In this document: positions 3,844 through 63,568 of the stretch, one piece after another | Layout: every line of letters starts with the position of its first letter | Numbering within the stretch: position 1 is the first letter of the stretch | Assembly (NCBI GenBank): GCA_004292675.1 | Contig: RDXO01000015.1 | Span: 9,115 to 73,114 of the forward strand | DNA length: 64,000 nt | Origin: Alphaproteobacteria bacterium | GTDB lineage: Bacteria; Pseudomonadota; Alphaproteobacteria; Rickettsiales; UBA998 | Direction: 5' to 3' | Notes under the pieces: model-generated | The model's database searches: none | Told to the model about the DNA's origin: nothing | What the model saw: only the letters and a program-made list of their open reading frames with translations | Translations under genes and position numbers: made by a program

Positions 3844-3932
3844 CCGATGAATCCTTAAATTATGGCTTTTGAAAAAATGATATATCGATTTAGCACGTTC
3901 GGAATAAAATCACAAATTTATTTGTGTGACAA

Positions 3933-4168
3933 CTCACCACCCTTCACATTATGTAAATATTGCACGCTACGCATTCGGTCTTATGCTCTCCCGCCTGCGG
4001 GGGAGCTAGTGAAGCAAGGATTTCTCAAAAGAAATCCGATGCTGAACAGTGGGGGGGCATTCTATCCCCCCACCCAATCATCTGCGGTTTTTCGTTGAAA
4101 AACCTTGATTCTTGGACTCCCCCGCAGACGGGAGAGTAAACCATTCCTACCTCATGAGAGGTGGTGGG
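3933..4168 (+). mobile_element. MITE family 1, copy 1 (~236 bp, five-hairpin non-coding element)
   Basis: About nine in ten positions match the copies at 55905-56143 (reverse orientation) and 63314-63551, by eye. It is flanked by a perfect 9-bp direct repeat, gtgtgacaa, at 3924-3932 and 4169-4177. Imperfect terminal inverted repeats: ctcaccaccc... and ...ggtggtggg. Confidence 0.75.
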
Positions 4169-4200
4169 GTGTGACAATTTTGAGATGGATGCGACTTTGT

Positions 4201-24760: not shown

Positions 24761-24885
24761 TATAGTCGTTTGACAAAAAATGATTCATTTTTCATGTCAA
24801 GAAACGACTATAACACTATGATTTATAGTGCTTTCACTATTTAATCATTGCCTGTTTATCGGCAATGATTGAATAGTAGCACTAT
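24761..24885 (+). repeat. palindromic repeat family 2, full copy (two long hairpin modules)
   Basis: Module A is tatagtcgtttgac...gaaacgactata. Module B is atagtgctttcactatttaatcattgcc-loop-ggcaatgattgaatagtagcactat. This copy is the reverse complement arrangement of the copy at 59843-59969. Confidence 0.7.
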
Positions 24886-48281: not shown

Positions 48282-48408
48282 AGACTTCTGCATAAACCAT
48301 AAAACCAACACATTCGTCATGCCTGCGTAGGCAGGCATCCAACAATAATAGCAGTGATGGATACCAGCCTTCGCTGGTATGACAAGGCTTGAGAGTTATG
48401 CAGAGTCT
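48282..48408 (+). mobile_element. MITE family 3, intact copy (~127 bp)
   Basis: Terminal inverted repeats: agacttctgcataa (48282-48295) and ttatgcagagtct (48396-48408). Two internal 8-bp-stem hairpins (atgcctgc-gtag-gcaggcat and ataccagc-cttc-gctggtat). A related copy lies at 63197-63568. Confidence 0.65.
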
Positions 48409-55631: not shown

Positions 55632-55904
55632 AAAATTTTTGAACCCTATCTTTCTTATAGAAATGAACGCATAGAAAGCACGACTATATACCCATTTTAC
55701 TTCAAGGAGTTGAGTCCTTGACGTGAAATTAAGGGTATATCTTATTAAAGATACTCATCGTTTCCACATTTTGATACTACGTATCTTCATGCGCGATGAG
55801 TATAGTAGCTTTTTATACATCACGCAACGACTTAATATAAAAAAGTTAGGGTGCTTGATTTTTTATGCAGTCGTCCAGCCATTAATCTCAGGAAAATTAC
55901 TTAG

Positions 55905-56143
55905 CTCACCATCCCTCATGAGATATGAATGGTTTACTCCCCCGCCTGCGGGGGAGTCCAAGAATCAAGGCTTTTCAACGAAAAACCGCAGATGATTGGG
56001 TGGGGGCGAATAGGATACCCCCCCCACGGTTCAGCATCGGATTTCTTTTGAGAAATCCTTGCTTCACCAGCTCCCCCGCCTGCGGGGGAGCATAAGACCG
56101 AATGCATAGCGTGAAATATTTACATAATGTGAAGGGTGGCAAG
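55905..56143 (-). mobile_element. MITE family 1, copy 2 (reverse orientation, 239 bp)
   Basis: Flanked by a perfect 9-bp direct repeat, attacttag, at 55896-55904 and 56144-56152. Internal sequence is collinear with copies 1 and 3. Confidence 0.8.
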
Positions 56144-56198
56144 ATTACTTAGTTTTTGCGCTAGACAGATTATCAAAAAAAGCCTATAAATTGATTCC

Positions 56199-57278
56199 AT
56201 GAATCATCCGACGCTTACTGTATCACTCCCTGCCATTGTGGATAATTGGCAGAGTTTGCGTAATCGTACACGCAGCACATGCACGGCGGCTGTGGTGAAG
56301 GCAAATGCGTATGGCTTGGGCGTAGCGGAAGTGAGTACGGCACTTGCACGCGCTGGATGCGATGATTTTTTTGTTGCCACCTTAGAAGAAGCCCTTACCT
56401 TACGTGCTGCACTTCCAAATGTGCGTATTTATGTATTTCAAGGAGTGTTGCGTGGAGAAGAAGGTGCGTATCTTAAGCATAATCTTCGCCCTATTCTTAA
56501 TACGCCCCAAGCAATCGAGCAATGGTTAGACATTCAATCAAACCATAACCATGCCCCCTCCCCTATCGTCCATATTGATAGTGGGATGCAGCGTTTGGGC
56601 TTAAATCCTTCGCATCTTGATGATACTGCCTTGCGTGAAAAAATTAGGGCAACCAACCCAACGCACATCATGACGCATTATGCGTGCGCTTCTGATCTGC
56701 ATCACGCAATGAATGCTGCACAACGGCGCATCATGCAGCGTATTGAGCAACTTCTACCCACATTCCCCACCTGCTATGCCAATTCTGCAGGGCATTTCTT
56801 GCCACATGATTATCATGGGGATATGACACGCCCCGGATGCGCGCTTTATGGCATTAACCCGTGTGATGATTCCCCTGCTACCCTCATGCGTCCTGTCGTG
56901 ACGCTTTGCGCCCCCATATTACAAGTGCGTGATATTGATGAGGTGAGTACCATCGGATATAGTGCAACCGCGCCAGTACGCCCCGCCATGCGTACACTCA
57001 CTGTGGGTATTGGCTATGCTGATGGTATTCACCGCACCGCAAGCCACCATCTTAGTGCCTCTTTGGGGGGCATTCCTATCCCTATGCTTGGGCGCGTGAC
57101 GATGGATATGCTGTGCTTTGATGTCACCCATGTGCCGCAGCGCATTCTTGAACAGCATGATTCAGTGATATTAATGGATGAACGGCAAACGGTGGATGAT
57201 GTAGCACGCATCTATGGCACGATTGGCTATGAAGTCCTCACCAGCCTAGGCAACCGCATACAACGTATCTATCACTAA
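56199..57278 (+). CDS. alr: alanine racemase
   Basis: AVVKANAYGLG PLP-lysine motif. Confidence 0.92.
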   Translation: MNHPTLTVSLPAIVDNWQSLRNRTRSTCTAAVVKANAYGLGVAEVSTALARAGCDDFFVATLEEALTLRAALPNVRIYVFQGVLRGEEGAYLKHNLRPILNTPQAIEQWLDIQSNHNHAPSPIVHIDSGMQRLGLNPSHLDDTALREKIRATNPTHIMTHYACASDLHHAMNAAQRRIMQRIEQLLPTFPTCYANSAGHFLPHDYHGDMTRPGCALYGINPCDDSPATLMRPVVTLCAPILQVRDIDEVSTIGYSATAPVRPAMRTLTVGIGYADGIHRTASHHLSASLGGIPIPMLGRVTMDMLCFDVTHVPQRILEQHDSVILMDERQTVDDVARIYGTIGYEVLTSLGNRIQRIYH

Positions 57279-63198: not shown

Positions 63199-63568
63199 AG
63201 CGGCATTACATCTATTGGTCATACCGGCGAAGGCTGGTATCCATAAACGACTAGCGTTACTGGATTCCTGCCTAAAGCAGGAATGACAAATGTGGTGGTT
63301 TTATGGGTTATACCTTGCCACCCTTCACATTATGTAAATATTTCACGCTATGCATTTGGTCTTATGCTCCCCCGCAGGCGGGGGAGCTAGTGAAGCAAGG
63401 ATTTCTTAAAAGAAATCCGATGCTGAACCGTGGGGGTGCATTCTATTCACCCCCACCCAATCATCTGCGGTTTTTCGTTGAAAAACCTTGATTCTTGGAC
63501 TCCCCCGCAGGCGGGAGAGTAAACTATTAATGTATCATAAGGAGTGATAAGGGGCTATGCAGAAGTCT
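63197..63568 (-). mobile_element. MITE family 3, second copy, interrupted by a MITE family 1 insertion
   Basis: The hairpins (ataccggcgaaggctggtat, attcctgcctaaagcaggaat) and the right terminus tatgcagaagtct match the reverse complement of 48282-48408. The left terminus is degenerate and abuts the creA stop codon. Confidence 0.6.
63314..63551 (+). mobile_element. MITE family 1, copy 3 (nested in MITE family 3)
   Basis: Collinear with copies 1 and 2. Flanked by gggttatac (63305-63313) and gggctatgc (63552-63560), a 7 of 9 direct repeat. The uninterrupted family-3 copy has a single ggtttatgc at that point. Confidence 0.75.

Follow-up and report, generated by a model that had tools for sequence, protein, structure and literature searches.

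A hairpin-rich MITE family with 9-bp target-site duplications in an uncultured alphaproteobacterium, and an IS4-like insertion sequence as its probable source of transposase

When a 64,000-nucleotide stretch of alphaproteobacterial DNA (the window, positions 9115-73114 of contig C25 of the source assembly, G000) was analysed, a repeated element of about 237 bp with a hairpin-rich core was found to belong to a family of about 50 copies, and this family is a MITE, a non-autonomous transposon, for which a 1,161-bp IS4-like insertion sequence (IS) of the same genome most likely supplied the DDE transposase in trans. The element itself carries no gene; we propose that a transposase-recognition sequence is present in inverted orientation at its two ends and that the palindromic, hairpin-rich core between them is filler without relation to a transposase gene. 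The preliminary description had already read the element as a MITE, and this is borne out by its small size, lack of coding capacity, inverted-repeat ends, 9-bp duplication, dispersal and variable insertion sites.

Three copies had been placed in the window, at 3933-4168 (plus strand), 55905-56143 (minus strand) and 63314-63551 (plus strand), and these positions proved exact. Copy 2 (239 bp, 55905-56143), a full-length copy, was used as the query of all genome searches, and position e of the element corresponds to window position 56143-(e-1). It lies in the divergent phaR-alr intergenic region and is flanked by two perfectly matching (9/9) copies of attacttag at 55896-55904 and 56144-56152. 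Its left terminal inverted repeat (56130-56143, minus strand) reads CTTGCCACCCTTCA on the element strand, and its right terminal inverted repeat (55905-55918, plus strand) reads CTCACCATCCCTCA inward. The outer 10 bp on the left differ from the IS terminus CTYACCACCC only at position 4, which is G in copy 2 and A in the IS. Copy 1 (236 bp) has perfect gtgtgacaa flanks (3924-3932 and 4169-4177). Copy 3 (238 bp) is nested in another small repeat, the third repeat family of the preliminary description, and is flanked by the degenerate pair gggttatac / gggctatgc. Thus, the 9-bp duplication claimed for every window copy is perfect at copies 1 and 2, and copy 3 retains it at only 7 of 9 positions. 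An uninterrupted copy of the third family at 48292-48394 serves as a paralogous empty site for copy 3, with a single ggtttatgc there. When the three copies were aligned they were collinear, with a mean column identity of 87 % (flanks included); roughly nine in ten positions had been estimated by eye. ORFs of 55-57 amino acids occur by chance within the element, and these are the near-identical spurious reading frames noticed before. It had also been stated that the window lacks a transposase gene; none of a type fitting the element was found there, and the matching IS ends lie on the same contig just beyond the window, at C25:1-98 and C25:88083-88180.

The source assembly (1.60 Mb in 45 contigs, 45.7 % G+C, 85.6 % complete) was searched by BLAST, and the family counted at three copies in the window was found in about 50 copies on 27 contigs and in several deletion size classes. 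The full-length class consists of 20 copies of 236-242 bp, together with four nearly full-length copies. A 105-bp form (13 copies) joins positions 1-73 to 188-239 with the junction inside two GC hairpins, and a form of 109-110 bp (about six copies) has the left terminus fused at the CCACCC motif to position ~143. Three copies are of a 158-bp form, and the remainder are a few copies of 93 and 121 bp plus fragments. All of these size classes have the same termini. The inverted-repeat ends reported earlier were recovered as CTYRCCACCCYTCA... plus its inverse, and CTYRCCACCCYTCA was located at both termini, with no more than two mismatches, in 37 of the 50 copies. Among these 37, the 9-bp flanking repeats match at 9/9 positions in 15 and at 8/9 in eight (23 of 37 in total), and randomly paired flanks reach eight or more matches in 1.7 % of cases. 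Consistent termini and flanking direct repeats therefore accompany the family genome-wide, and the short forms have duplications of their own at sites of their own. By our estimate, the 15 perfect duplications are about what a decay of 4-5 % per copy would leave. Full-length copies are 85-96 % identical in pairwise comparison (median 91 %), and no near-identical pair was seen. No ORF of at least 120 amino acids runs across any of the 50 copies, so all copies are intergenic or reach only into gene ends. They occur in both orientations relative to neighbouring genes.

The whole genome of the one other species of the genus (G001) was compared, as were 39 additional genomes from the same family and order. 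The element is restricted to the two species of the genus and is absent from these 39 genomes. The sister species carries about 15 copies, three of them full-length. Both flanks of a site were found together there for 33 of the 50 sites, about 29 of which have no element, and the flanks lie within 25 bp of one another at 16 sites. Clean empty sites with a single 9-mer in the sister species are those of C17:36432 (GCATATAAT) and C25:5772 (CTCAATTAA), and further ones were observed for C26:20615, C6:21958, C6:36747 and C45:2439. The reverse case is a full-length copy private to the sister species at C32:17043, where the matching site of the source genome is empty. At the site of copy 2 the element is also absent from the sister species; the neighbouring ~40 bp are rearranged there (an 18-bp tandem duplication), so this is not a clean empty site. 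The preliminary description had named syntenic positions across species as the observation that would speak for a conserved structured RNA gene, and the empty sites show variable insertion instead. Four insertions are orthologous (C44:8545, C22:26033, C39:15901 and C3:53340), and at two of these four sites the species differ in the internal deletion of one ancestral copy. The shared site with the duplication CAGGCATCC, for example, holds a 105-bp form in the sister species and positions 1-127 plus a stub in the source genome. These differing deletions at orthologous sites indicate that part of the size variation arises in place.

When the source genome was scanned for the terminal motif outside the MITE copies, many contig ends were found to carry, ~98 bp inside, one of two sequences, A (CTTACCACCCGACAAGTTTAGCG..., 15 ends) or B (CTCACCACCCGACAAGTTAATAG..., 11 ends). 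Together, A and B bound a single IS, whose 18-bp inverted repeat is CTYACCACCCGACAAGTT. The 26 ends are 100 % identical and represent at least 15 IS copies; on the contig of the window, the B end occupies 1-98 and the A end 88083-88180. Pairing of the A and B flanks across contig ends gave seven 9-bp duplications (five perfect and two with one mismatch), and one further pair fits a 10-bp duplication by our own reading of the flanks. The IS termini resembling CTYRCCAYCC that had been proposed as a search target are thus those of a co-resident IS with the outer terminus CTYACCACCC.

Contig C45 extends 908 bp into an IS copy. Joined to a B end it gives 969 bp with a 263-amino-acid ORF, which matched Pfam DDE_Tnp_1 (PF01609; E = 2.4e-9) and had 'IS4 family transposase' as its best NCBIfam model. 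The motifs AGDRFYG and YGMRWGIEPMFSDFK (the Y-2-R-3-E-6-K signature) could be read directly. A database search returned a 327-amino-acid protein identical to this ORF save for two in-frame gaps in C45, of 57 and 7 amino acids; most relatives of this protein have 326 amino acids and are encoded on contigs of 1.1-1.3 kb. The metagenome contig encoding the 327-amino-acid protein contains everything from the B terminus through the complete gene to the A terminus, a span of 1,161 bp that makes up the IS. The C45 copy is defective because the 57 lost residues include ILMMDQT, which likely holds the first catalytic Asp. This copy, with its two in-frame deletions, is the only IS copy assembled. An intact interior was not found in the source assembly, presumably through collapse or filtering.

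The transposase family, left open in the preliminary description, is accordingly given as IS4-like. The best family by far is NF033591 (transpos_IS4_2), to which the 327-amino-acid transposase scores 135.1 bits against a curated cut-off of 152; the IS is called IS4-like and not a confirmed member because the score falls below this cut-off. No significant sequence match to the transposase was found among solved structures. Features in common with the IS4 family are the DDE_Tnp_1 domain, the Y-2-R-3-E-6-K motif, ends starting with CT and a compact size of ~1.16 kb. The family is characterized by inverted-repeat ends and duplications of 9-12 bp, and both traits are seen in the IS, whose inverted repeat measures 18 bp and whose duplications measure 9 bp. 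IS10/Tn10 and IS50/Tn5 are IS4-family elements with 9-bp duplications. Compact elements of the ISAba1 type are among the annotated IS4-like relatives, and identity of the transposase to ISAba1, ISAs18 and ISSysp2 is 21-27 %. The closest annotated relatives (41-46 % identity) are unnamed and are found on plasmids of Methylobacterium, Skermanella and Methylomagnum. The 46 %-identical Methylobacterium relative has the ends CTTGCCATC... (also given as CTTGCCATCTATCAGTTT) and CTGACCATC... and a 9-10-bp direct repeat, and both the CTYRCCAYC terminus and the length of the duplication therefore characterise the IS clade as a whole. In the sister species the IS is represented only by a 176-bp remnant (94 % identical), and beyond that remnant a single degenerate copy (49 % identity) was found among 40 relatives. 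The number of MITEs thus follows that of the IS: the source genome has about 50 MITEs along with 15 or more IS ends, and the sister species has about 15 MITEs, about a third, along with the 176-bp IS remnant.

MITE and IS have in common the outer 10 bp (CTYACCACCC), CA at positions 13-14 and the 9-bp duplication length, and the rest of the 18-26-bp inverted repeats differs. From these likenesses we infer that the IS lineage mobilised the MITE in trans. A DDE transposase making 9-bp staggered cuts and acting in trans had been anticipated, and the co-resident IS4-like element, its probable source, fits in terminus and duplication length. Only chance 8-11-mers are common to the MITE core and the IS interior; hence the MITE is not an internal-deletion derivative of the 1,161-bp IS. 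A MITE of this kind corresponds to 'type II', a term quoted in PMC6382973. The MITE copies, ~91 % alike, point to an older burst than do the IS ends, all of which are identical. Our reading is that the MITE burst would be old, dating from around the species split, and the IS burst recent. The contrast between identical IS ends and the lack of any near-identical MITE pair also means that no sign of MITE mobilisation can be seen from the current IS burst.

The same difference in age, together with the fact that only 10-12 terminal bases are common to MITE and IS, would suit a MITE moved by a different, lost or unassembled transposase with a longer end match, the likeness to the IS then being family-level conservation of the terminus. 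The genome is only 85.6 % complete, and a possible trace of such an element exists: a 151-bp sequence with an unassembled interior begins with CTTACCACCCCTCA, a terminus that matches the right end of the MITE perfectly over 14 bp, and is confined to two places, the end of C35 and, in inverted orientation, the start of C7. However, this 151-bp arm occurs once per orientation, has no recognisable gene and lacks matching 9-bp flanks, and the assembly contains no other DDE_Tnp_1 gene with fitting ends. The IS, on the other hand, has the same 9-bp duplication and clusters at MITE ends, and its 94 %-identical remnant in the sister species implies that the IS lineage dates back as far as the genus itself. 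We therefore consider a different transposase unlikely and retain the IS4-like lineage as the probable agent.

We also analyzed other elements as candidate parents. The IS5-like element on C9 has an inverted repeat, CTAGGCTGTGTTGAC, that differs from that of the MITE, and the ends of an IS5-like pseudogene on C24 do not fit. A second high-copy IS, with the inverted repeat TGTCCATCCCCGTCARGTTGGGT and at least 27 contig ends, yielded no pairs of 9-bp flanks and has ends less similar to those of the MITE.

IS insertions cluster at MITE ends. Of the 15 A ends, five fall no more than 40 bp from a MITE end, against an expectation of ~0.03 TIR-like motifs per 60-bp window, and in two of these five the gap to the MITE is exactly the 9-bp target. 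C20 carries, in order, GGCAAAAAC, MITE, GGCAAAAAC and IS end, and on C34 a B end is followed by GGCAAAAAC again; the join of C20 to C34 is made by the duplication alone, in a region not conserved in the sister species. Such an arrangement might arise if the IS transposase used resident MITE ends as landing beacons, a suggestion that we put forward tentatively and regard as doubtful. If true, a transposase bound at a MITE end would steer target capture beside the MITE, and IS-MITE composites would be able to move flanking DNA; end-directed targeting is not established for IS4-type elements.

The core of copy 2 (55937-56091, minus strand) is an imperfect palindrome, ~70 % identical to its own reverse complement. 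It had been described as a string of five hairpins, and all five were found, at about 56070-56091 (hairpin 1), about 56039-56058 (hairpin 2), about 56000-56027 (hairpin 3), 55969-55987 (hairpin 4) and about 55937-55957 (hairpin 5). In the predicted minimum-energy fold, though, they are not independent: the GC hairpins 1 and 5 pair mutually and enclose a three-way junction of hairpins 2-4, and the two terminal inverted repeats are base-paired together. The pairing of hairpins 1 and 5 agrees with the ~70 % self-complementarity of element positions 54-207 seen by BLAST. According to this folding model, one closed multi-branch fold is more likely than five separate hairpins. Folding was carried out for both strands, as had been suggested, and both are far more stable than shuffled sequences (RNA -112.5 kcal/mol, z = -8.65; other strand z = -6.65; DNA z = -7.1).

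This stability on both strands (z -8.7 and -6.7) could also be expected of a functional structured RNA or regulatory module (terminator, insulator or mRNA stabiliser) whose core is kept by host selection and whose spread is secondary. It would suit such a module that all copies are intergenic, that one weak terminator-like hairpin is predicted at 55987-55969 and that one orthologous copy is 100 % identical in both species with flanks of 92-98 % identity. However, no Rfam match was obtained for the whole window at the gathering threshold or for the element at E <= 1, and a promoter and terminator scan did not rise above shuffle expectation. Across 22 full-length copies 94 % of cells are paired, yet double-change cells number only about 10 (slid controls, 2-5), and pairs are often broken by single changes (e.g. 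pair 191-204, which is C-A in 11 of the 22 copies). Copies stand in both orientations relative to their neighbours, and they lose the core readily, as the differing in-place deletions at orthologous sites show. There is thus no convincing covariation, a structured-RNA or regulatory role is unlikely, and we give host selection for the core as the origin of the family very little weight.

The palindromic, GC-hairpin-rich, intergenic character of the element and the small alphaproteobacterial genome bring to mind REP/BIME-like or Rickettsia-palindromic-element-like repeats, for which a Y1 (RAYT) transposase or recombination would be the means of spread. Such a repeat is excluded, with a probability that we regard as negligible, because the copies have defined inverted-repeat termini with 9-bp duplications, because the source genome has no Y1_Tnp (PF01797) gene in a search that gave matches in control genomes, and because the location is strictly intergenic, none of the 50 copies lying within an ORF of 120 or more amino acids, unlike Rickettsia elements.

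For the MITE mobilised by the IS4-like lineage, we propose the following course of events. The 327-amino-acid DDE transposase (DRFY, Y-2-R-3-E-6-K) would bind the common outer terminus CTYACCACCC and cut the MITE out, and the MITE would integrate at 9-bp staggered cuts, the repair of which would yield the 9-bp direct repeats. This particular transposase is the probable agent, and the mechanism would be cut-and-paste of the Tn5/Tn10 type. Insertions would persist only in intergenic DNA, and resident copies would then decay by point mutation. Shrinkage in place may have produced the 105-bp form, when the two near-identical GC hairpins recombined, and the ~110-, 121- and 158-bp forms, when CCACCC or G-run motifs did so.

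The element family is a clear but ordinary case of a known kind of mobile DNA. Other abundant short palindromic repeats include the Correia elements (NEMIS) of Neisseria, which have a TA duplication and 26-bp inverted repeats, and the Rickettsia palindromic elements, which insert in frame within genes and without duplications. The present element resembles both in its long hairpins, its internal-deletion size variants and its presence in small or host-restricted genomes, and differs in having 9-bp duplications and a strictly intergenic location. The closest described analogue is MITEAba12 of Acinetobacter with its proposed parent ISAba12 (PMC6382973). Both are bacterial MITEs with imperfect terminal inverted repeats and 9-bp duplications (PMC6382973), and in both the parent was assigned from a common end sequence and an equal duplication length in a co-resident IS. 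Duplications are intact in 40 % of MITEAba12 copies (PMC6382973) and perfect in 15 of 37 here. MITEAba12, in contrast, has 113 bp, 78 % A+T and an unstructured 81-bp core, whereas the present element has 237 bp, a core of GC hairpins around a three-way junction and a deletion series. The parents also differ, being ISAba12 for MITEAba12 and an IS4-like element here, and transposition of MITEAba12 was caught experimentally (PMC6382973), whereas here it is deduced from sequence comparison.

Although current understanding of transposition is unchanged and a specialist would not be surprised, a mobile pair of MITE and probable IS4-like parent can now be assigned to an uncultured alphaproteobacterial genus of river cyanobacterial mats, probably those of the Eel River for the sister species (PMC6776057). 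Full-length copies, four deletion classes, nested insertions and differing in-place deletions at orthologous sites form a natural series that could be used to study how MITEs originate, decay and attract further insertions. For gene calling, the element is a source of spurious, near-identical small ORFs. In addition, the two high-copy IS of the source genome occupy over half of the contig ends, and this accounts for the fragmentation of the assembly.

When the site of copy 2 of the MITE, a hairpin-rich non-coding element of about 237 bp (window 55905-56143, minus strand), was inspected, a promoter-like sequence (TAGACA-17 nt-TATAAA) was read directly downstream of the element, at window 56162-56201; the promoter scan did not list it. 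The insertion has left this putative core promoter of alr intact. Only 8 nt lie between the -10 box (TATAAA) and the alr ATG, so that the alr transcript, judged from this spacing, may be leaderless or near-leaderless. In the sister species of the same genus (G001), the orthologue of window ~55867-56152 (C27:~24791-24838) carries an 18-bp tandem duplication (GGGCATCTAAGTACGCCA twice) in place of MITE copy 2. The CTAAGTA within this duplication resembles the reverse complement of attacttag, the target duplicated by copy 2 in the source genome (G000).

The two near-identical GC hairpins of the MITE core, hairpins 1 and 5 (56070-56091 and 55937-55957 in copy 2), share a palindrome whose two central loop bases are hypervariable across all MITE copies (AG, CT, TT and GT). 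AG is the reverse complement of CT. Such variation would be expected from occasional flipping of the palindrome or sequence exchange between both hairpins.

Hairpins were also observed among the insertion targets. The palindromic target TATAGTCGTTTGACTATA, which is part of another repeat, has received the MITE three times and once the parent IS, the 1,161-bp IS4-like element proposed to mobilise it (G000 C38:167, C45:37922, C37:2546 and C10:~99, all outside the window). Several further targets are hairpins as well, for example AAGGTGATAGG...CCTATCACCTT at C26:20615. The parent IS is assembled in just one copy, which lies outside the window at G000 C45:57708-58615 and differs from the 327-aa transposase form by two in-frame deletions of 57 aa and 7 aa, the larger of which takes out the first catalytic-Asp region.

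A second high-copy IS, with the inverted repeat TGTCCATCCCCGTCARGTTGGGT, was found in G000 outside the window. Its sites, of which 15 are 'left' and 12 'right', lie nearly all at contig ends (e.g. C41, C1, C4, C36, C34, C18, C12, C27 and C33). More than half of the contig ends in this genome are due to either this IS or the parent IS. Many of its flanks have TA or TAG at the end, and when pairs of 9-bp duplications were sought among its flanks in G000, none was found. At the start of C39, one copy of this IS truncates a MITE. Two other contig ends in G000, also outside the window, carry a 151-bp sequence, once per orientation (C35:73435-73585 and C7:1-151). It starts with CTTACCACCCCTCA, of which 14 bp are identical to the right terminus of the MITE, and may represent either a foldback element or one terminus of a transposon that was not assembled. 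An IS5/IS427-like element of about 815 bp, whose inverted repeat is CTAGGCTGTGTTGAC and whose transposase is frameshifted, is present on C9 of G000, outside the window.

Within the window, a 116-bp non-coding repeat distinct from the MITE lies 100 bp from MITE copy 2 (55689-55804; first bases TACCCATTTTACTTCAAGGAG, last bases GCGATGAGTATA). G001 lacks this repeat at the orthologous site, which is cleanly empty and has TATA at each of the two junctions. The copy counts are about 36 for G000 and about 33 for G001. One copy interrupts an IS5-like transposase pseudogene (G000 C24:~600-1700, outside the window). The family 3 repeat (~103-127 bp), which is intact at window 48292-48394, gave 36 matches in G000 as against 92 in G001. 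Another of its copies is split (63218-63311 and 63552 onward) and hosts the nested MITE copy 3 (63314-63551, plus strand).
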